Below the pieces are notes generated by a model. The model ran no database searches and was not told the DNA's origin. It saw only the letters and a list, made by a program, of their open reading frames with translations. Source: Patescibacteria group bacterium (GTDB lineage Bacteria > Patescibacteriota > Minisyncoccia > 2-02-FULL-40-12 > IGHO2-01-FULL-4-A). From it: a DNA stretch of 37,577 nucleotides. A program made the translations under genes and the position numbers. The stretch is taken from NCBI GenBank assembly GCA_038064915.1, contig JBBTSB010000012.1, positions 1 to 37,577 on the forward strand, in the 5' to 3' direction. This document shows positions 2,232-34,861 of this stretch, piece after piece (the stretch's first letter is position 1; the number at the start of each line of letters is the position of its first letter).

Positions 2232-4535
2232 TTACCTCCCAATCTTACCCAAGTAGGTGTTGTCCGCATTGCGAACGATGGGATTTCGAATTTCAATTTC
2301 AGATATTTGAGAATTCTCCAAAAGGTCCGAAGTAACGAGCAGCCCAGTCAGCAAAAGCAGAAGTGTGGCAACAACCGAGAGCATCTTCGTGCTGGGCACG
2401 GCAAACTTTGATCGGAAGAAATGATAGCCGAAGGTGATTGCAAGGCTTGCAAGGACGGTGGCAGTAGCGCCATCCACGCCAGTCTGCACTTGTCCAGGAG
2501 TGACAAGAATATTTTTGGCAACATAGATTGGAATGCTAGATTCCCGTTCCGAAATGCCGTCCGCTCGGGCAAAACCCCGATTGACAAGGATAGTAGTTCC
2601 CGTCTGAAACGCAGAGGCATCCCTTACGACTGCTCGGAATGTGATTTCCAATGAATCGTTCGGATCAAGAGCTCCCACGCTGATTCCATTTCCCGTAATA
2701 CCGTCGGGGTACGTGGAGCCGCCAATACGAGTTGATCCAACTTCATAGATCATTTCCGGCGGGAGAGCATCACGAACGATGATGTTGTTGAGACGGGTAT
2801 TGGAATCTGAAGTCACCAAGAGGGTAAAGCGCACGAGATCACCGGGTGATGCATCCACACGAGTGAGCGGCTGGGTGTCTTGCTTGCTCAAGTTCTCTCC
2901 AAATTTTTCAATACTCATAGACAGGAAAGGACTCTGTGTTGTAAATGGCGTAGGAGTTGGCGTTGGCGTGGGAGTCGTTCCGGGAAGCGGTGTAGGAGTA
3001 GGTGTCGGCGTGGGTGTTGGGGTTGGTGTGGGTGTCGGGGTGGGGGTAGGCGTAGCCGCCGCAACACGTCTAACCCAGAACCATTGATGTGCGCTTCCAC
3101 CCGAAGTAACGGTCACCGTTCCTGTCGTGGGTCCGGTTGATTGCCACCCTGTCGGCATGGTTAGAGACACGGTATAGGTGCCAACCGGAAGCGCAACGGA
3201 ATAGTATGGATCGGTATTACACTTGTCAGTGCGAACGGTGCCATTGGTCGGACCTTGGTAGGTTACTACAAACCCGGATTGCAAAAGTTCATTGGTACAG
3301 GAAAGGGTCGACGACGAATCTTTGATAGCTTTTTCCCCGGTATCTCGAACCACATCTCCATCAAGGTCCTCAATGATGCGGCCCAGCAAAGCCCCACCTG
3401 CTGGAGCAATAGTATCAAAAGCAGCACAAATGGGTTGGATACTGTTGGCTTGGGAAGTTCCCCCTGCGTGGCGGGCGGCTATCGTGGTGCCAGCTCGCGC
3501 CAAAGAAATATTTCCAACTGACAAAATTAATTTTGTCTGGCTTTGCGGTAAGTCTCCAATAGGTGCCGAATCGGCAATCGTCCCCGCACCATCGCTCAGA
3601 CGTACGTAGTAGCGTTCGTTGGTTTGATCAGTGGAATTTGGATGATCATCATACGACATGAGAGTCACCCCATAGGAACCTGCTGGTAGCGCAAACGCAT
3701 AGGGACCCATCTGTGTTGATGTTCCAGCGACGCTATTATCAGTTAAAACGCCAGTAGGAAAGTTAAAGATCGTCCGGCCTGCTTGGGCGGTAATTCCGCA
3801 TGAAGGACGAGTTGCCGACGCGGTGGTTGTGCCTCCACCAGAAGTACCTCCGGTACTTCCACTTCCCCCGGTACTGCCGCCGGTCGTCCCTCCACCGCTT
3901 GTACCACTACCGCCTGTTGCCGCAATAATATTAATCTTTAAATTCGGCGTTAGCGCACCAAACCACCCCGGACCACCGTCGCCGATCATCTGCCATTGAA
4001 AATCTTCCTGGGTACCGGGAAAGTTGGGGGCAGTGATAACAAAGGTAAACGTGGCATTTTGGTTTGGAGGAACGCTTGGTTGTTGCAGATATACTCGGCT
4101 AGCATTGATCCAATCCAAGTTGTCACGAGGATTTTGCGTGCCCAGCTTGTATCCCAAATCTCCGCCCGTCCAGGTCGTAGTCCCGGTATTTTTCATCACC
4201 ACGGTAACCGTGCGCTTTTCTCCAACGCTCATAGTATCGCCATTGGCAATGCCACTGTACGAAACAAATTGGGCATTGTTTATCGCAGTTGTGCTTGCGG
4301 TACCTCCCCCGGTGGCAACTACTACGCATTTTTTGGTTGTTGTATTCCAATCACAAGCATAATCCTCGAGACAATCGGTTTCATTTGCATAGCTCGAACA
4401 AATTGCAGCCTCCGACGTGAACAGTGATACATAAAAATTCGTGTGCCTAAAGTACAGCGCCCAGAACGCAAAAAGCGACACTACCACGACGAGTGTCAGA
4501 GCAATAATCAAGCTTCGTTTAGATCCTACTTCCAT
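2232..4535 (-). CDS. Large secreted/surface protein. N-terminal TM anchor, Gly/Thr/Ser-rich region, (PT)n linker, an NBR1-like Ig-fold segment and a DUF11-like conserved repeat domain near the C-terminus, then a C-terminal hydrophobic segment.
   Basis: 767-aa ORF. N-terminal hydrophobic helix, long TPTPTPTP... run, low-complexity GGSGTSGGG tracts, C-terminal hydrophobic stretch followed by RSK. The domain calls come from motif resemblance only. Confidence 0.6.
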   Translation of the reverse strand: MEVGSKRSLIIALTLVVVVSLFAFWALYFRHTNFYVSLFTSEAAICSSYANETDCLEDYACDWNTTTKKCVVVATGGGTASTTAINNAQFVSYSGIANGDTMSVGEKRTVTVVMKNTGTTTWTGGDLGYKLGTQNPRDNLDWINASRVYLQQPSVPPNQNATFTFVITAPNFPGTQEDFQWQMIGDGGPGWFGALTPNLKINIIAATGGSGTSGGGTTGGSTGGSGSTGGTSGGGTTTASATRPSCGITAQAGRTIFNFPTGVLTDNSVAGTSTQMGPYAFALPAGSYGVTLMSYDDHPNSTDQTNERYYVRLSDGAGTIADSAPIGDLPQSQTKLILSVGNISLARAGTTIAARHAGGTSQANSIQPICAAFDTIAPAGGALLGRIIEDLDGDVVRDTGEKAIKDSSSTLSCTNELLQSGFVVTYQGPTNGTVRTDKCNTDPYYSVALPVGTYTVSLTMPTGWQSTGPTTGTVTVTSGGSAHQWFWVRRVAAATPTPTPTPTPTPTPTPTPTPTPLPGTTPTPTPTPTPFTTQSPFLSMSIEKFGENLSKQDTQPLTRVDASPGDLVRFTLLVTSDSNTRLNNIIVRDALPPEMIYEVGSTRIGGSTYPDGITGNGISVGALDPNDSLEITFRAVVRDASAFQTGTTILVNRGFARADGISERESSIPIYVAKNILVTPGQVQTGVDGATATVLASLAITFGYHFFRSKFAVPSTKMLSVVATLLLLLTGLLVTSDLLENSQISEIEIRNPIVRNADNTYLGKIGR

Positions 4536-4589
4536 TGTCTTTTAGTATAGCGTAAAAAAAAATCTCTCACAGTAAATATGTTGATATCT

Positions 4590-5243
4590 TCAGTTTTGCG
4601 CCTCTATACGAATGATGAGCGCCATCGCAATAACAAATCCCACAACAACGAAAAGCACGCTGACCACCTTCCAAAACAGCGGTGTCATTTTTGAAACCAC
4701 AAGGAAATGTCTCCCAAAACCCTCAACAAACAAATCGACTTTCTTGTCGACGGACTTTTCCCGCACGATCGCATCAGCCGTAGCCATGGTGCCGGTGTAC
4801 ATTTTGATGAGGTCATAGCGGCTGATGATGCCGACAAGACGCTTTTGATAATCCACAACGGGAATGGGATTGACACGATGATGCTCTGCAAAGGTACGCG
4901 CTACTTCCTCCAATGGCACATCATCGAACACCGTCAACGGCTCTGGATTCATAACATCCTTGACGGTGAGGGTCACGATTTTTTGAAGTTCCGGCTTGAG
5001 TCGCTCCTTGTCTTTTTTGTACACATCCAACTGATTGATCAATTGCATGAAGGTGGGCAAGTGAATATTGGCGCCTTTGGTCACCAAATCATACTGGGTG
5101 ATGATACCCAAAAGCCCGCCATCTCCGCCCACAACAGGAAGTCCATCCCAATTATTTTCAAAAATAATCTGGGCCGCTTTGAGTAACGAATCCTCCGGCC
5201 GTACGGTCGTGACTTCTCTTGTCATGAGATCTCTTGCATCCAT
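4590..5243 (-). CDS. CBS domain pair protein with C-terminal TM helix
   Basis: Two CBS-like repeats (DLMTREVTTVRPEDSL... and VKDVMNPEPLTVFDDVPLEEV...), and a C-terminal hydrophobic segment. Confidence 0.7.
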   Translation of the reverse strand: MDARDLMTREVTTVRPEDSLLKAAQIIFENNWDGLPVVGGDGGLLGIITQYDLVTKGANIHLPTFMQLINQLDVYKKDKERLKPELQKIVTLTVKDVMNPEPLTVFDDVPLEEVARTFAEHHRVNPIPVVDYQKRLVGIISRYDLIKMYTGTMATADAIVREKSVDKKVDLFVEGFGRHFLVVSKMTPLFWKVVSVLFVVVGFVIAMALIIRIEAQN

Positions 5244-27132: not shown

Positions 27133-27753
27133 TTAGATCAGTTCCGCAATCACCACAAGACGCTGTTTGGTAGAAAAAAGTGGAGCGCAGGTGATGAGAG
27201 TAATGGTTGCTTTGTCGGTGGAATTCAGTACAGAAAAATCAGTCGGTTCGATGATTTTGATTTCGGTTGTTCGATACGTATACGTTGTCCCTTTCCAAGA
27301 CACCTTAATCTCATCTCCGGCACGAATTTTGTCCAAAGCGTAAAATGTATTGGAAACGGGAGGAAGGTAGCGGAAGCGGTGACCAAAAATCACCGTGTTG
27401 CTTGCGTATTCCGGCGTCGATGTTCCCGGAAATATCCAGCCGCCTTTGACGAGCACGTCGGCATCATCACTTTCAAAAATCGGCATGCTGATATCCAATT
27501 TGGAAATGAAAAGACGATTTTTTATATTCGGTCGGTTGGGGTCGAACGAAGGAGCTGGCGTCGGAGATGAAGAAAAAGAGGAACTTGCCATAGGTACGTC
27601 AACAACTCGTTCCTGGGCAACCGCATCGAGGTAATCCAAATCCCCGCTCAAGCCGAATGGCAAAAACGGAAACGACAAACCGCCCACACCCACGAGGAGA
27701 AAGATCACCCCGAGGATAATGAGCGGCTTGTTGAATGTTCGCTTGTTAGGCAA
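27133..27753 (-). CDS. Sortase family transpeptidase
   Basis: N-terminal TM anchor, catalytic His (VIFGHR), active-site TLITC motif (TLxTC) and a downstream Arg. Overlaps the upstream LPXTG-protein gene by 8 nt. Confidence 0.8.
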
Positions 27754-29155
27754 GGGTTGTAAGGAATCGGCGAGGCAAAGCTTGGGCTCCGACGAGTATC
27801 AAGAAGATACCTGTCAGCGCAAATGCAATAAAGAGAGAAGCAAGCATGCGATCGCTGAAGCCAAATCCTGTCGTAGGAAGCACATCGCTTGCACCGGCTA
27901 CCTGTCCGCCACTGGTTGTACCACCGGTAGTTCCACCGGTTGTAGCACCAGCAACTTCACCACCGGTTGTTCCACCCGTGGATCCGCCACCTGAAGTGCC
28001 ACCACCAGTGGATCCACCACCAGAACTTGTGGCATTGTCGTTGTAGGTAAGCGTGCAGGTCTTGGAGTCACCATTGGCGAGAGTTACATTACCAATAGTA
28101 TCGCAGTCTCCCGTGATACCTTCAAAGGTATAGTCTGAGCTCCCTACAACCGTCAACAGGATGGTCGATATTCCACCCGTGCCGGTGTTACTAAAGCGCG
28201 AATCGCCATCAACATCATAGGTTGCTGGGGTAACTGTGTACTGAATACCGGAGTTCAAGCCGCCTGCTGGAGTACCGCTGACAAGCGTGCCATTGGTCAT
28301 TTCAATCGTGTGAATAAAATCCTGTGATGTGGCAGTTCCGCCGTTGTCATTGATGACAATCGTTTTGACGATCAGAGTTGCTGACTGCGGAGGGGTGACA
28401 CCGCCTCCACCACCGCCGCCGCCCCCTCCACCACCACCAGTTCCTGGATCAGGAGTGGGTGTTGGAGTTGGAGTAGGTGTAGGTTCCACGCTCGGTGTAG
28501 GAGTTGGGGTCGGGGTTGGTTCAGGAGTTGGGGTCGGAGTTGGGCAGTTTGGATTATTGCCTGGATTGTCACAACTTGGATCAGAGGTTGGCGTAGGAGT
28601 CGGAGTTATCTCGGGCGTTGGTGTCGGGGTTGGAGTAATCTCTGGAGTCGGTGTGGGAGTAGGAGTTATTTCGGGGGTAGGAGTCGGGGTTGGAGTAGGA
28701 GTGGGGGTTGGCGCTTCAGTAGGTGTTGGTGTTGGGGTCGCGGTTACACCGGCAACACGAAAATTATCAGATTTCCCATCGACTTCTGATTTATACTCTC
28801 CTCCATCACCATCTTGAATTGTATATGCTGCAAAACAAAACTTTCCTTGAGCATCGGTTGTTATAGTTCCAGAAGCTACCACGGTGCTTGGGTCTGTAGA
28901 ACCAGGTTGTCCAGTTACCGTCCAGGTTAAAGTGACATCCTGATCAAACCCCGTACCAATAATATACATAACATCACCGACCTCATAGAGGTTTTTGTTT
29001 ACCGGATTTCCACAATCTCCCGTAGTAGTTTTAATATTTCCACCTGCTGCTTGCACACTTCCAAGCGGACCAATGACAGGCATTAAAACCATCGTGCTAA
29101 CAAATACGACCAGGAATACTGAGCTTGCGACTGCTAATAGTTTACTTTTATTCAT
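27746..29155 (-). CDS. LPXTG-anchored surface protein with PT-repeat linker and poly-Gly tract
   Basis: Signal peptide, an ([10 protein letters not shown])n repeat, a G13 run, then a C-terminal LPTTG motif followed by a hydrophobic helix and an RR tail: a canonical cell-wall sorting signal. Confidence 0.8.
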
Positions 29156-29227: not shown

Positions 29228-30142
29228 TCATGATAATGCAAGCCCTAGGCCTATATACCTATTAATCGCCAGCACTGTCAGTACGACGAGGATCAATAGC
29301 ATCGGCGCAATCGCCAGGCGTGGATTAGGAAGTTCAAAACGGATAATGATCGTGAGGACGAAGGCCAAAAGAACAATTCCTCCTATAATAAGCAAAATAT
29401 TGTTAGTTGTCTTGCGAGGTTCGATGACTACCGTGGTGAGAATACTAGAAGGTTGGACCTTGTTTGGTTGTGCAAGTGCAGGAATTGCTGTTGGTGAACG
29501 TTTTGCCATCGGTGATGGTGATGGAAAAGTTGTCGCTGCCGCTTCGACACGTTGAGGTGAGACCACGATGCGGGATGAGCTCCGAGGCTTTCCAAAATAC
29601 TGCACTACAAAAATAGCTTCGTTCCCCTGGTACATTCCCTTTGCGGTCGCAATACCGATCTCCGTATAGCCTCCGTTCATGATGTTGGCGCGATGCGAAG
29701 GTGAGTTCATCCATGCGGTATGCACATCGCTTGAGTCAATAAAATTCACGGCAAGATTCTCCCCTGCTGCCGTGTATCCGTACCCAGCCTTCTGCAGCCA
29801 GTACCACGGCGTGACTCCCTCGGGGCTTGTGTGCGCAAAGTATCCCTTACTTGCCATGTCTTGTGCCTTGAGCGTGGCCGCCTGCTCTAATATGGAGTTG
29901 GTAACGAGTATTGGAAGATTTTCGTTCGTACGAGATGCATTGGCCGACTGTACCAGTACATTGGGAAGGATCAATGAAAAAAGTCCTTGACCCGGTTTGA
30001 TCACGAACGTCGAAACCAAAAATGTTCCTTCAACCGTGATGGCAACCGCCAACAAAAAAACAATCGCCTCCGTGCGAAGCATATGCGGATGGTGATCGTT
30101 CCCTTCGTGGGGGATGAAGTGGTCTTTGAGCCAAGAAAGCAT
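29228..30142 (-). CDS. CAP/SCP (PR-1-like) domain membrane protein
   Basis: GYFAHTSPEG...GENLA...WMNSPSHRANIMN...YTEIG is the CAP-domain signature. N-terminal TM helix and C-terminal hydrophobic helices. Confidence 0.65.
   Translation of the reverse strand: MLSWLKDHFIPHEGNDHHPHMLRTEAIVFLLAVAITVEGTFLVSTFVIKPGQGLFSLILPNVLVQSANASRTNENLPILVTNSILEQAATLKAQDMASKGYFAHTSPEGVTPWYWLQKAGYGYTAAGENLAVNFIDSSDVHTAWMNSPSHRANIMNGGYTEIGIATAKGMYQGNEAIFVVQYFGKPRSSSRIVVSPQRVEAAATTFPSPSPMAKRSPTAIPALAQPNKVQPSSILTTVVIEPRKTTNNILLIIGGIVLLAFVLTIIIRFELPNPRLAIAPMLLILVVLTVLAINRYIGLGLALS
30071..30133. repeat. Direct repeat copy 1 (5' end of the CAP gene, about 63 bp)
   Basis: gtgcgaagcatat|gcggatggtgatcgttcccttcgtgggggatgaagtggtctttgagccaa recurs at 30965..31083, with one mismatch and a 56-bp insertion. 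Confidence 0.85.
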
Positions 30143-30166
30143 AGGTATATTATATCACTTCGGCAA

Positions 30167-30694
30167 TTATAGATCGAAATACTCTACAATCTTTTGCGCA
30201 ACCTCACGTGGTTGCATGGTGCTTGTATCAAAAGTGATATTCTCAGCATTCTGCACCTTTGCAAAGAGATTAAACTTGTCCATCAATTCCTTGAGCTTCT
30301 CTGGGGTTTTTACTTTATGGAATTTTTCTCGGCTTGGCTCGTTGACACGCTTCATTAAGATCTCTTCAGGCGCTATGAGTTGCACAAAATGTATTTGGCC
30401 TTTGTTGTGCTCTACAATCTTGGATAACGAATCAATCCAGGGTTGATCGCTTATGTCATAAACATAGGTAAAAATCACACCAGGAATATCCGCTTTGGCT
30501 GTGGTATCAATAATATCTTCGAGAATTCTATTGACTAGTGGTGCGCGAGCTGAATGTCCCCAATCAAAAAAAATACCAATTATGTCACTGATGATGTGAT
30601 TGTGAAAATTCTTGTAGCCTGTTAGTTTTTCGAGCTCATTTGCTACAGTGAGCTTACCAACGGCAGGAGGACCATAGAGGAAGATGAGATTCAT
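30167..30694 (-). CDS. P-loop NTPase, kinase-like (AAA_33 / zeta-toxin-like fold)
   Basis: Walker A motif LYGPPAVGKLT near the N-terminus. About 175 aa, typical of small nucleotide or polynucleotide kinases. Confidence 0.55.
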   Translation of the reverse strand: MNLIFLYGPPAVGKLTVANELEKLTGYKNFHNHIISDIIGIFFDWGHSARAPLVNRILEDIIDTTAKADIPGVIFTYVYDISDQPWIDSLSKIVEHNKGQIHFVQLIAPEEILMKRVNEPSREKFHKVKTPEKLKELMDKFNLFAKVQNAENITFDTSTMQPREVAQKIVEYFDL

Positions 30695-30702
30695 ATTTAT
30701 TC

Positions 30703-30939
30703 TTACAATAAATGTTTTCTCAGAAAAGCTCTGCCTGAACCGGACTTGAGATACTTTTCGAGGGCAAAAGCTTTCTCTTTATTATTAATAGCCATATATC
30801 CGTGTAGTCTAACGGGTAGGTATCCTTTGGTTGCCAACACATGGCCGGATTGATGCCTATGTAAGCGTTGCTTCAGATCGTCAGTACATCCGGTGTACAA
30901 TCTTTCTTCCGAACAAATGAGAATATAAACGTAGTACAA
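30703..30939 (-). CDS. GIY-YIG nuclease superfamily protein (UPF0213/YhbQ-like, 78 aa)
   Basis: MYYVYILICSEERLYTGCTDDLKQRLHRH... contains the GIY (YVYIL) and YIG (LYTGCT) motifs. Conserved Arg and Glu follow. Confidence 0.75.
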   Translation of the reverse strand: MYYVYILICSEERLYTGCTDDLKQRLHRHQSGHVLATKGYLPVRLHGYMAINNKEKAFALEKYLKSGSGRAFLRKHLL

Positions 30940-30964
30940 GAATGCAAGCTATATTAATTCTTTC

Positions 30965-31083
30965 TGTGCGAAGCATATCCCTCCTTCGCGGGCTTGAGGG
31001 ACGCGTCCGCCGAAGCCCGCTATGGCGGGCGAAGGCGGATGGTGATCGTTCCCTTCGTGGGGGACGAAGTGGTCTTTGAGCCA
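30965..31083. repeat. Direct repeat copy 2 (disrupted duplicate of the CAP gene 5' end), interrupted by a 56-bp GC-rich palindromic insert (30978..31033)
   Basis: Encodes the MFNWLKDHFVPHEGNDHHP fragment on the - strand (compare MLSWLKDHFIPHEGNDHHP at the real gene start). The insert contains GCGGGCTT...AAGCCCGC stems. Confidence 0.85.
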
Positions 31084-31122
31084 ATTGAACATTATTTTAT
31101 TATATGTTAGACTCTCCAAACT

Positions 31123-32223
31123 ATGCAAATGACCGTTGCAACCGCGGGTCTTTCCATGAAGGATCTGCTCGCACAAACCGTGATTGAACTTCCCAAAGCC
31201 GGGGCTGTTGTCGAGGGCGATGTGTTAAGCGTCAGCAAAAACGCCGTGATGGTGGATTTGGGCAGTCTGGGCACAGGCATCGTTTACCCCGGTGAATTTT
31301 ATGACAACTCCACTCTCCAGAAAACACTCGCGCCCGGTCAGCACATCAGCGCGGTATTTCTTGCCATTGAAGATGAGGGGGGACTGGGCTATCGGGAGCT
31401 TTCTCTTCGCCGGGCACAACGCACCACCGCTTGGGAAGACATCAAACAGAAAAAAGAGAGCGGCGAGGTCGTCACCACAAAGATCGTCAATATCAATAAA
31501 GGTGGACTAATCGTAGAGATCAATGGCGTCCAGGGATTCCTTCCCCTATCGCAACTTTCTCCCGAACACTATCCCAAAGTGGAGGGTGGCGACACCACGA
31601 AGATCGTCCAAGTACTTCAAAAATTCCGCAACCAAGATTTTCAAATGAAGATCATCGATTTTTCTGAAGAAGAAAATCGATTGATTGTATCCGAAAAAGC
31701 TATCAGCGAAGCGAGCCTCCAGGAAGAACTGGCAAAGTTTGTCATCGGTGATGTCGTGGCTGGCGTTGTCACGGATGTCACAGACTTTGGCGCGTTTGTC
31801 ATGTTGAAGTCAAAAACTGAAGGTGCTCCGGGTATTGAAGGGCTGATCCATATTTCAGAAATTGATTGGAAAATCATCGACAACCCCCGCGACATTCTGG
31901 CCACCGGGCAGGAAGTACAGGCCAAAATCATCACCATTGAAGGAGGAAAAATTTCCCTTTCTCTCAAGGCGCTGAAGGCAGATCCGTGGGAACATGCGTT
32001 GGAAAAATATGCTGTAGGCCAAACACTCACCGGCAAGGTGGTAAAGATCACCAACTACGGGGCGCTTGTTAGCCTCGATGACGAAATCACGGGCCTGGTT
32101 CCCCTTTCAGAATTTGGCGAGAAAAAACCATCCGAAGTAGTCACCATCGGCGCACAGCAACTTGTCGCTATTGTCTCCCTCGACCCTCAAGAGCACAAAA
32201 TGCTACTCACGCTACAGAAGTAA
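31123..32223 (+). CDS. rpsA: 30S ribosomal protein S1 (short, 4 S1-domain form)
   Basis: 366 aa with repeated S1-domain patterns (GDVVAGVVTDVTDFGAFV..., GQTLTGKVVKITNYGALVSL...). Confidence 0.8.
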   Translation: MQMTVATAGLSMKDLLAQTVIELPKAGAVVEGDVLSVSKNAVMVDLGSLGTGIVYPGEFYDNSTLQKTLAPGQHISAVFLAIEDEGGLGYRELSLRRAQRTTAWEDIKQKKESGEVVTTKIVNINKGGLIVEINGVQGFLPLSQLSPEHYPKVEGGDTTKIVQVLQKFRNQDFQMKIIDFSEEENRLIVSEKAISEASLQEELAKFVIGDVVAGVVTDVTDFGAFVMLKSKTEGAPGIEGLIHISEIDWKIIDNPRDILATGQEVQAKIITIEGGKISLSLKALKADPWEHALEKYAVGQTLTGKVVKITNYGALVSLDDEITGLVPLSEFGEKKPSEVVTIGAQQLVAIVSLDPQEHKMLLTLQK

Positions 32224-34124: not shown

Positions 34125-34808
34125 ATGGCTCGCTTCAAGGACAGAGAAAAGGCCGTACAACTTCGAATGCAAGGCAAAACGTATTCCGAAATACGACCCA
34201 TTCTCGATGTAAGTAAAAGTACGCTCTCGAATTGGCTTACAAATATTCGTGTTTCAAAAACACAACTCCAAGATATCGAGAAAAGTGCAAAATTGAAGCG
34301 AAGTGAAAACTATTTCCGAACTATTCGAGAACGAAAAGCACGTCTTGAGAAAGAATACTTCGAAGCAGAGAAAAGTACTTTAGGAAAAATTACCAAAAGA
34401 GACCTATTTATAGCTGGCCTATTTCTTTATCTCGGGGAAGGTACAAAAAGTACGGCATCGAAAATTTGTATTTCCAATAGTGACCCTGCAGTTATTGCTT
34501 TCGCGTCATTTTGGCTCAAGAAAATTTTAGGCGTAGAGAAAAAGAAAATGAGAGTCGCAATTCATCTTTATAGCAACATGGAAATTGAGAGGGAAAAATT
34601 GTTTTGGAGTAAGGTAACAGATTTGCCGATTGCACAATTTCATACACCCTACATAAAGAGGTCTAGAGCGAACAGGATCACCCACATCTCCCATGGTCAT
34701 GGAACTTGTAATATTATCTATGGAAATGTACACTTAAAACAGCGAATTATGGCAGGAATAAAGGTTATATTAGGAGATGGACTTGACGGGCGCGTAGCTC
34801 AATGGTAG
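34125..34808 (+). CDS. HTH-domain protein with one LAGLIDADG-like motif (possible degenerate homing endonuclease); its 3' end runs 21 nt into tRNA-Ile
   Basis: N-terminal resolvase/sigma-70 region-4-like HTH (GKTYSEIRPILDVSKSTLSNWL). FIAGLFLYLGEGTKS resembles the first LAGLIDADG motif of the ORF at 36778. No clear second motif. Confidence 0.4.
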   Translation: MARFKDREKAVQLRMQGKTYSEIRPILDVSKSTLSNWLTNIRVSKTQLQDIEKSAKLKRSENYFRTIRERKARLEKEYFEAEKSTLGKITKRDLFIAGLFLYLGEGTKSTASKICISNSDPAVIAFASFWLKKILGVEKKKMRVAIHLYSNMEIEREKLFWSKVTDLPIAQFHTPYIKRSRANRITHISHGHGTCNIIYGNVHLKQRIMAGIKVILGDGLDGRVAQW

Positions 34809-34859
34809 AGCACGTCACTTATAATGACGAGGTCCCTGGCTCGATCCCAGGCGCGCCCA
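34788..34859 (+). tRNA. tRNA-Ile (anticodon TAT), 72 nt
   Basis: Acceptor GGGCGCG/CGCGCCC, D-arm GCTC-AATGGTA-GAGC, anticodon stem CGTCA/TGACG with loop CTTATAA, T-arm CCTGG-CTCGATC-CCAGG, discriminator A. Confidence 0.75.
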
Positions 34860-34861
34860 CT

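Follow-up and report, generated by a model that had tools for sequence, protein, structure and literature searches.

A foreign cassette with a 78-residue GIY-YIG nuclease gene and a duplicated target start in a groundwater Patescibacterium

Introduction

How does a gene come to have a second copy of its own beginning almost a kilobase upstream, with a small nuclease gene in between? The question is raised by a 37,577-nt contig (JBBTSB010000012.1; hereafter the window, meaning this whole stretch of DNA) of a Patescibacteria metagenome-assembled genome (MAG) from Hainich groundwater, whose bacterium is uncultured. In this window, the start of a gene encoding a CAP-domain protein is repeated upstream of a GIY-YIG nuclease gene and a kinase-like gene. 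An initial annotation, made from the DNA letters alone, had read the arrangement either as the footprint of a mobile, homing-type GIY-YIG insertion or as a nuclease plus NTPase module of defence-system style. Here we show that the 807-bp block between the two copies is a foreign insertion into the 5' end of the CAP gene. We consider it somewhat more probable than the contrary that this block is a selfish cassette built on a mini-nuclease, homing-like in behaviour, and that on insertion it duplicates the promoter-proximal part of the target.

The duplicated gene start

All relevant features lie on the minus strand, except for the divergent gene of ribosomal protein S1 on the plus strand. Read 5' to 3' on the minus strand, their order is repeat copy B, split by a hairpin element that we call E, a 23-nt leader, the GIY-YIG gene, the kinase-like gene, and repeat copy A running into the CAP gene:

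29228-30142, minus: CAP-domain (YkwD-like) gene, 304 aa, membrane-anchored, the intact host target (Pfam PF00188, E = 6e-17)
30069-30155, minus: repeat copy A, 87 nt, with -10 box, ATG and codons 1-25, running into the functional CAP gene
30156-30962, minus: unique cassette between the repeat copies, 807 bp, GC 0.395, without counterpart in four related S1-CAP loci
30167-30694, minus: cargo gene, 175-aa P-loop protein (GPPAVGKLT) with a predicted nucleoside monophosphate (NMP) kinase fold
30703-30939, minus: GIY-YIG nuclease gene, 78 aa, TTG start, catalytic domain only (UPF0213/YhbQ type)
30963-30978, minus: distal 16 nt of repeat copy B (codons 20-25, ATATGCTTCGCACAGA), between E and the cassette; direct repeat D7
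30979-31034, minus: E, 56-nt GC-rich (0.73) hairpin element, precisely after CATCCGC in copy B
31035-31105, minus: proximal 71 nt of repeat copy B, with -10 box, ATG at 31092 and codons 1-19; direct repeat D3
30949-31092, minus: 47-aa open reading frame (ORF) from the ATG of copy B through E
31123-32223, plus: ribosomal protein S1 gene (Pfam S1), synteny anchor outside the element

The repeat search returned D3 (71 nt, 87% identity, 30085-30155 against 31035-31105, spacing 950) and D7 (16 nt, 94% identity, 30069-30084 against 30963-30978, spacing 894), which form a single 87-nt repeat once E is taken out. This repeat begins at a ATATAATA -10-like box 13 nt 5' of the ATG and ends after codon 25. 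The repetition of the CAP start reported in the initial annotation is therefore real and 87 nt long, but the offset of 894 given there applies only to the last 16 nt; from ATG to ATG the spacing is 950, since the 56-nt E intervenes. Likewise, exactly two genes lie between the copies, as had been stated, and the kinase-like protein does have 175 aa, while the GIY-YIG protein has 78 aa and not 80. The two genes are tightly packed, with 8 nt from the GIY-YIG stop to the kinase start and 11 nt from the kinase end to copy A.

The copies differ at 10 of 87 positions, of which 8 fall in the first 22 nt (the spacer and codons 2-3) and only 2 in the other 65, a skew along the repeat that is significant (Fisher p = 1.7e-4). 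Their longest common exact run is 43 nt, and their homology breaks off abruptly at codon 25. Over codons 4-25, copies A and B are nearly identical at synonymous sites; orthologues differ at these sites, which rules out an old decayed paralogue. The search for further copies covered the window and found no second GIY-YIG gene, kinase or CAP N-terminal motif. The same arrangement is present in an ENA assembly, in the NCBI MAG contig and in Logan contigs of three sequencing runs, the latter spanning E-GIY-kinase-CAP and S1-copy B-E separately.

The block between the copies is an insertion

Four related genomes (loci L008, L011, L169 and L170) have the CAP gene directly beside the divergent S1 gene, 29-112 nt apart, with S1 proteins 75-83% and CAP proteins 54-66% identical to those of the window. 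No GIY-YIG gene, kinase or second CAP gene start was found at the S1-CAP junction of any of them. These are the empty sites, each with one copy of the CAP start, that the initial annotation had proposed to look for. Because S1 and CAP are adjacent without the cassette in these four genomes, the 807-bp block of the window is a foreign insertion, located within the first 26 codons of the CAP gene, and the locus displays the presence/absence polymorphism by which homing endonuclease genes are recognised. Relative to these genomes, the window has about 950 bp of extra DNA, made up of E (56), the cassette (807) and one repeat copy (87). Since the CAP gene of the relatives lies directly beside S1, it is copy B, 30 nt from the S1 start, that occupies the native position of the CAP start.

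Base composition points in the same direction, with a GC content of 40% and a third-position GC (GC3) of 41% in the GIY-YIG and kinase genes against 46-51% in neighbouring genes and 48% in the whole window. The earlier reading of the block as an insertion is thus borne out by the four empty loci, by the foreign composition shared by the two genes and by the same kind of duplication around GIY-YIG genes in other genomes, described below. The CAP protein belongs to a family of more than 5000 homologues, very large in Patescibacteria, with a shared N-terminus (WLKxHFIPHxGNxHxPHxLRTE).

On one empty-site contig (L007/L008, 42-1127), a reverse-transcriptase gene (RVT_1) is located past FtsH, about 3.6 kb from S1, and may belong to a group II intron or a retron.

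A catalytic-domain-only GIY-YIG protein

The 78-aa protein is a member of the GIY-YIG superfamily (Pfam PF01541, E = 1.3e-11, 45 bits against a cut-off of 22.6, residues 4-70) and, with its single domain, of the stand-alone UPF0213/YhbQ type. The closest PDB structures are 1zg2 (UPF0213 protein BH0048, E = 2e-7), with which its YVYIL, LYTG, RLHRH and ALEKY segments align, and 1ywl (E = 0.03). We found 1480 homologues, mostly of 77-82 aa, and the gene is also in the NCBI annotation (P0236). The suggestion of a homing-type GIY-YIG gene holds in that the gene is of this superfamily and has empty sites; it fails in that the protein is of the catalytic-only type and lacks a DNA-binding domain.

The TTG start of the gene has no Shine-Dalgarno sequence. 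The in-frame TAG of the 47-aa decoy ORF, which starts at the ATG of copy B, lies 9 nt before this TTG, a proximity that suggests coupling of the two by reinitiation or readthrough. The TATAAT-N6-ATG layout at the CAP start is kept in relatives L169 and L170; a promoter consensus scan gave uninformative output.

The layout recurs around related GIY-YIG genes

A scan with the GIY-YIG protein, using one genome per species, yielded 26 loci, 25 of which were testable for repeats. In 8 of these 25, the GIY-YIG gene stands between direct repeats that reach the threshold of 40 nt (43-166 nt), whereas 144 control positions taken from the same loci gave only four distinct repeat pairs. Straddling repeats vary from 22 to 166 nt among loci. 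At L020 (Gottesmanbacteria, 3808-4825), where the GIY-YIG protein is 67% identical to that of the window, a 71-nt repeat at 87% identity is followed, after its upstream copy, by a GC-rich element, the GIY-YIG gene and, after a 5-nt gap, a cargo gene for a 169-aa dCMP/MafB19-type deaminase. The downstream copy starts at the stop codon of this cargo, ahead of a cupin gene whose promoter/5' leader is the duplicated target, and the ATG of the upstream copy is fused in frame to the GIY-YIG gene.

In five further loci from Patescibacteria and Bacteroidetes (L029, L033, L037, L041 and L043), the downstream copy is an intact tRNA gene (Ser, Trp, Asp, Ser and Gly, respectively), and the upstream copy is a pseudo-tRNA in which a GC-rich hairpin replaces or interrupts one arm. 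In four of these loci (L029, L033, L041 and L043), as in the window, 9-16 nt separate the hairpin from the 3' end of the upstream copy; in L037 it follows immediately on a 22-nt fragment of tRNA-Asp. The offset of 9-16 nt in five independent loci suggests that hairpin insertion and cassette junction are mechanistically linked. In L033 and L043 the tRNA body is identical between the copies and the 5' flanks have diverged. Overall, a tRNA or tmRNA gene in the same orientation was found within about 400 nt of the GIY-YIG gene in 16 of the 26 loci. At L030 (3866-4750), a 387-bp unit of hairpin repeat and GIY-YIG gene is present in 2.3 tandem copies at 95% identity after a tmRNA gene.

The best reading of these genomic neighbourhoods is a class of elements in which a GIY-YIG gene of about 78 aa, catalytic domain only, would sit directly beside short conserved sequences, mostly tRNA genes, in the same orientation. 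Members would have one or more GC-rich hairpins on the 5' side and could carry a single, closely spaced passenger gene; roughly one in three would be flanked by a duplicated target.

Two observations concern amplification. In two Melioribacter MAGs, L030 and L035 (2233-2814), a hairpin repeat of about 135 nt and the GIY-YIG gene are amplified in tandem directly downstream of tmRNA. At L033 (4358-4744), a further GIY-YIG ORF, diverged in sequence, comes after the intact tRNA-Trp, so that the order is pseudo-tRNA, GIY, tRNA, GIY.

E belongs to a hairpin family linked to GIY-YIG genes

Copy A reads CATCCGC/ATATGC where copy B reads CATCCGC, the 56 nt of E, and ATATGC; E was therefore inserted without target duplication, and copy A, which lacks it at the same point, serves as an internal empty site. 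The initial annotation had remarked that the upstream copy is disrupted. It is, and the disruption is not incidental, given that E is a member of a hairpin family tightly linked to GIY-YIG genes. Homologues of E lie directly upstream of the closest GIY-YIG genes (L020-L028). A covariance model run over 266 kb placed E only immediately upstream of GIY-YIG genes, and once in the window (64.7 bits, E = 5e-13); the model was built from 78 members including the window copy, so that this score is partly self-contributed. Neither a mismatch search nor the covariance model found a second E in the window.

A pattern scan extended the family, widespread in Patescibacteria metagenomes, to at least 120 loci (window 30979-31034 and L046-L165), with lengths of 56-62 nt. 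Among the matches listed, a co-oriented tRNA ends exactly at E in 56 of 113, and 51 of these are tRNA-Ser, with all five anticodons seen, the rest being tRNA-Asp and tRNA-Trp. In another 17 of the matches listed, E abuts the 5' end of a reverse-oriented tRNA-Gly or tRNA-Pro. Of 95 such matches, 33 have a GIY-YIG gene downstream of E, within 700 nt and in the same orientation. Where the order is tRNA-Ser, E and GIY-YIG, the 3' arm of E (GCGAAGGAGAG) would provide the ribosome-binding site a few nucleotides before the ATG. The tRNA-Ser genes without E in these loci end in TCCGC/A, as does copy A at the corresponding point. The positions of E are those of an insertion with specificity for the 3' side of TCCGC, a motif that the CAP site, CATCCGCATATGCTTCGCACGGA, also has; this site appears to mimic a tRNA-Ser 3' end.

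E is predicted to be structured (folding z = -3.1). The alignment of 78 sequences contains two hairpins with compensatory changes, amounting to 32, 15 and 8 double changes with few or no broken pairs; the bases of the search pattern count for nothing in this support. E carries GGCGG(A/G), which has two possible pairing partners, the target end (T/C)CCGCC and an internal copy of that end motif, and the base just outside E covaries with bases inside it (T-A in 54 sequences, C-G in 15). Rfam 15 gave nothing credible at E up to an E-value of 5; in the window and 16 loci it returned only tRNA, tmRNA and one SAM riboswitch. GC-rich double-hairpin elements exist in some fungal mitochondria.

E also occurs as solo copies and in tandem (L106, L118 and L156). 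Starting 3 nt 5' of E, the contigs L117 and L131 share 97.8% identity over at least 900 nt, but their upstream sequences, tRNA-Ser in one and non-tRNA in the other, are unrelated. Judging from this alignment, there is an apparent recombination breakpoint exactly at the 5' end of E. We also attempted to define a mobile unit from the pair, but no right end is visible, and mobility of the unit is not proved by it.

Two side observations concern the surroundings of E. A 40-nt part of the L020 repeat is also found beside a solo E in the unrelated locus L067 (4851-4880), and in those two loci only. In the window, the 16-nt piece of target between E and the cassette (30963-30984; copy A 30069-30090) is bounded by inverted TCCG...CGGA motifs (TCCGC/ATATGCTTCGCA/CGGA); these borders, a single observation, may fit paired nicks.

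The kinase-like gene is a probable passenger

The second gene of the cassette encodes a protein with a Walker A motif (GPPAVGKLT) and a predicted P-loop NMP-kinase fold. Its AlphaFold2 model has a pLDDT of 95, and its fold neighbours are the putative kinase 2rhm, the tunicamycin-resistance protein 2vli, shikimate and gluconate kinases and PSTK (Foldseek probability 1.0 to 2rhm, 2vli, 3trf, 2bdt and 3adc). In Pfam, AAA_18, RapZ_N and KTI12 match weakly, RapZ-like_N being the only one to touch its cut-off (25.5 against 25.4) and the others staying below theirs. NCBIfam kinase families (shikimate kinase, PSTK, RapZ and adenylate kinase) scored 17-25 bits against cut-offs of 162-290. A specific tRNA-kinase function, which we considered, was discarded, as the similarity to PSTK and KTI12 is weak and under the cut-offs; the fold is that of a generic small-molecule kinase.

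The closest homologues, at 83% (in another Hainich Patescibacterium) and 63% identity, lie in two other, unrelated contexts. There they form a two-gene unit with an overlapping 3' 23S_rRNA_IVP gene (PF05635, four-helix bundle) and without GIY-YIG (L012 2668-3563 and L015 1768-2663), and the nucleotide similarity to the window ends at the limits of the coding sequence. The family is small and scattered over Patescibacteria, Acidobacteriota and Actinomycetes. The kinase is missing from all 64 other GIY-YIG loci, where very diverse genes follow GIY-YIG. We therefore rejected the kinase as a conserved partner of GIY-YIG. Since its closest relatives occur away from GIY-YIG genes, since the other GIY-YIG loci lack it and since L020, a full parallel in design, has a deaminase gene in its place, the kinase is, as far as gene contexts tell, an exchangeable passenger rather than a functional partner of the nuclease.

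Comparison with known systems

The best precedent, by analogy, for nuclease-initiated events at this locus would be SegB, a GIY-YIG endonuclease in the tRNA cluster of T-even phages that mediates homing of that region and was shown experimentally to create tandem tRNA-segB repeats through cleavage followed by recombination at microhomology (PMC2330249, PMC13096335). Like the element described here, the T-even seg genes are GIY-YIG genes outside introns and beside tRNA genes; they spread with their flanks by break repair, and their tandem products resemble the tRNA-GIY-tRNA layouts and the L030 array. On the other hand, Seg proteins have about 200-250 aa with a C-terminal DNA-binding region, whereas ours has 78 aa and the catalytic domain only, and seg genes are phage genes for which no hairpin element or decoy copy has been described, whereas ours is on a bacterial chromosome.

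Free-standing GIY-YIG ORFs of fungal mitochondria are accompanied by duplication of the end of a neighbouring gene, such as the atp9 N-terminus, or of part of atp6 or cox1 (PMC7487136). As in the window, a duplicated terminus leaves one intact gene and one pseudo-fragment, but these ORFs are organellar and encode full-length endonucleases. Within the same lineage as our bacterium, rRNA genes of the candidate phyla radiation (CPR) have non-intron insertions that encode GIY-YIG or 23S_rRNA_IVP proteins, located at stem-loops and distinct from group I/II introns (PMC11270868). The small-protein families are the same, and the relatives of our kinase pair with a 23S_rRNA_IVP gene; however, the CPR insertions are inside rRNA genes, and no target duplication, cargo or tRNA association is reported for them.

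Integrative elements that target tRNA genes (attL/attR) likewise flank their insert with partial target repeats and leave one intact target copy. Yet they need an integrase and repeat the 3' part of the tRNA, whereas here the 5', promoter-proximal part is repeated around an insert of less than 1 kb. Between the repeats we found only the GIY-YIG and kinase genes and no tyrosine or serine recombinase, the rest of the genome being outside this search. REP/RAYT and IS200/IS605 systems resemble E in that short GC-rich palindromic elements are linked to one small nuclease-type gene, and E, like IS200/IS605 at its target tetra- or pentanucleotide, inserts 3' of TCCGC without target duplication. Their partner is an HUH/Y1 transposase, in contrast to the GIY-YIG partner of E, and the 37.6-kb window has one E; no TnpA (HUH/Y1) was seen in the loci examined, which were not searched exhaustively. 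Nor does the cassette have the marks of an insertion sequence or transposon, as there is no transposase between the repeats, no inverted repeats at the cassette ends and no fixed repeat length. The target duplication read from the repeats in the initial annotation calls for a correction: 87 nt with patchy divergence is no ordinary transposon target-site duplication.

Taken together, the element acts in the manner of a free-standing homing or selfish gene of the GIY-YIG kind. The lack of a DNA-binding domain and of a clean insertion sets it apart from classical homing endonuclease genes, and it has the defining features neither of transposons nor of integrase islets or known defence systems. 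Literature searches on UPF0213, Patescibacteria, pseudo-tRNA and direct repeats with GIY-YIG found no description of a mini GIY-YIG gene combined with a TCCGC-specific hairpin, a decoy duplication and a single-gene cargo.

A possible mechanism

In the mechanism that we propose for a selfish mini-nuclease cassette, the nuclease would break the target at or near TCCG(C)-type motifs, recombination repair would copy the cassette in, and microhomology or unequal exchange would duplicate the adjacent segment of the target. The host gene or tRNA would stay intact as the downstream copy. The upstream copy would serve as a decoy and, with the -10 box and start codon retained from the host gene, would probably drive the cassette. 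We infer such promoter capture because the TATAAT-N6-ATG layout is conserved, the decoy ORF ends in frame just before the TTG, and the ATG at L020 is fused in frame. E would be a separate small element of the same system, inserting 3' of TCCGC; in the window it would have struck the dispensable decoy copy, where the CATCCGC/A site may pass for a tRNA-Ser 3' end.

A bolder version is that E and the mini GIY-YIG gene form an unrecognised nucleic-acid-guided mobile element, in which hairpin DNA or RNA would give the 78-aa nuclease its site specificity and the breaks would make the decoy duplications; we hold this to be speculative and rather doubtful. Its corollary, that the targets would be tRNA 3' ends and occasionally look-alike sites in protein genes, we regard with the same scepticism.

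Alternative explanations

Several points weigh against a homing-like cassette. The nuclease activity and its specificity are predictions from sequence; the 78-aa protein lacks the C-terminal DNA-binding region of I-TevI and Seg proteins and any further Pfam domain; and the TTG start without Shine-Dalgarno sequence may indicate that this GIY-YIG gene is decaying. The empty sites come from fairly distant relatives only, look-ups of the exact kinase, CAP and S1 proteins gave the filled arrangement alone and no empty allele at strain level, and recent mobility is not visible, the nearest GIY-YIG homologue being only about 70% identical. At the commonest arrangement, tRNA-Ser followed by E and GIY-YIG, we found no flanking repeats beyond partial tRNA matches of 22-31 nt in two loci, and some of these loci could be vertically inherited operons. 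Flanking repeats are accordingly rejected as a universal feature and duplication is not obligatory; it may be confined to insertions that fall within the target or upstream of it. Furthermore, the pattern-based search for E biases which of its columns look invariant. Finally, the patchy divergence of copies A and B (8/22 against 2/65) is unlike a simple staggered-cut duplication and calls for gene conversion or a chimeric or donor-derived copy; by itself, this contrast fits passive, homology-anchored integration equally well.

According to this passive alternative, the chief rival, foreign DNA came in by natural transformation and was integrated by homology-facilitated illegitimate recombination, or by a single crossover of a small circle with a CAP 5' fragment. 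The conserved CAP start would then be the homology anchor, and the GIY-YIG gene a mere passenger with no part in the insertion. We judge both the route and the passive role of the nuclease unlikely, yet worth serious consideration. The repeat is long (87 nt), near-identical where the CAP start is conserved, and diverged in the spacer and first codons, as if one copy were donor-derived; L033 and L043 repeat this pattern with their identical tRNA bodies and diverged 5' flanks; there is no recombinase between the repeats; and Patescibacteria are reported to be naturally competent (PMC12455944). What passive acquisition leaves unexplained is why GIY-YIG genes in particular, and in several phyla, are surrounded by this layout, why the GC hairpin is found 9-16 nt from the repeat end in five independent cases and why E is so tightly linked to GIY-YIG. 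Moreover, the donor that it requires, with GIY-YIG and kinase upstream of a CAP gene, was found in no genome examined.

The other alternatives fare worse. Small nuclease plus P-loop pairs are common in defence islands, and the GIY-YIG and kinase genes, 8 nt apart and of the same base composition, could be taken for a two-gene anti-phage module that landed by chance in a surface-protein gene, as the initial annotation had offered. This is very improbable: PADLOC-DB 2.0 gave no match to the kinase and only two weak, partial matches to GIY-YIG (E 0.007-0.02, 28 residues), none significant; the pair was found nowhere else, the closest kinase relatives being away from GIY-YIG and all 64 other GIY-YIG loci lacking the kinase; the genes after GIY-YIG are very diverse; and the kinase fold is that of small-molecule kinases. 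The large size of the CAP family in Patescibacteria might suggest a tandem pair of ancestral CAP paralogues that had ordinary resident genes between them and of which the upstream member has decayed to a remnant. The chance of this is slimmer still, as it is already contradicted by the single CAP gene beside S1 in four relatives, by the near-identity of the copies at synonymous sites of codons 4-25, unlike orthologues, together with the abrupt end of homology at codon 25, and by two intervening genes that are of foreign composition and syntenic nowhere. The initial annotation had named paralogous CAP genes with housekeeping genes between them as the finding that would speak against an insertion, and this was not seen in the related genomes. 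An assembly artefact, namely a chimeric join of two population variants, is hardly credible. The Logan contigs do break at the repeat border, but such breaks are expected of short-k assemblies at repeats, both sets of junctions occur in independent contigs of three runs and in two other assemblies, and the exact run common to the copies is only 43 nt.

Significance and neighbouring features

UPF0213-type mini GIY-YIG proteins are abundant, especially in Patescibacteria, and their function is unassigned. The present results give them a testable genomic behaviour, in that they lodge by tRNAs and conserved gene starts, have a dedicated hairpin and duplicate the target while sparing the host gene; they also probably borrow the target promoter and ferry single passenger genes. 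If the nuclease drives these events, they would represent a compact way for streamlined genomes without classical transposases to gain genes and duplicate DNA locally, and the minimal nuclease/hairpin pair could be of practical interest. The layout also explains a class of pseudo-tRNAs and odd 5' gene fragments in MAGs that might otherwise be read as assembly noise.

Beyond the element, the gene 3' of CAP encodes a 469-aa surface protein (27746-29155) with long Pro-Thr and Gly-rich repeats and a C-terminal tail resembling a sorting signal, and a sortase gene (27133-27753) comes next after it. The repeat DNA of the surface protein gives rise to a strong GC skew at about 28500-28750. ARAGORN placed a tRNA-Ile gene with the anticodon TAT, which is uncommon among bacteria, at 34788-34860 of the window.

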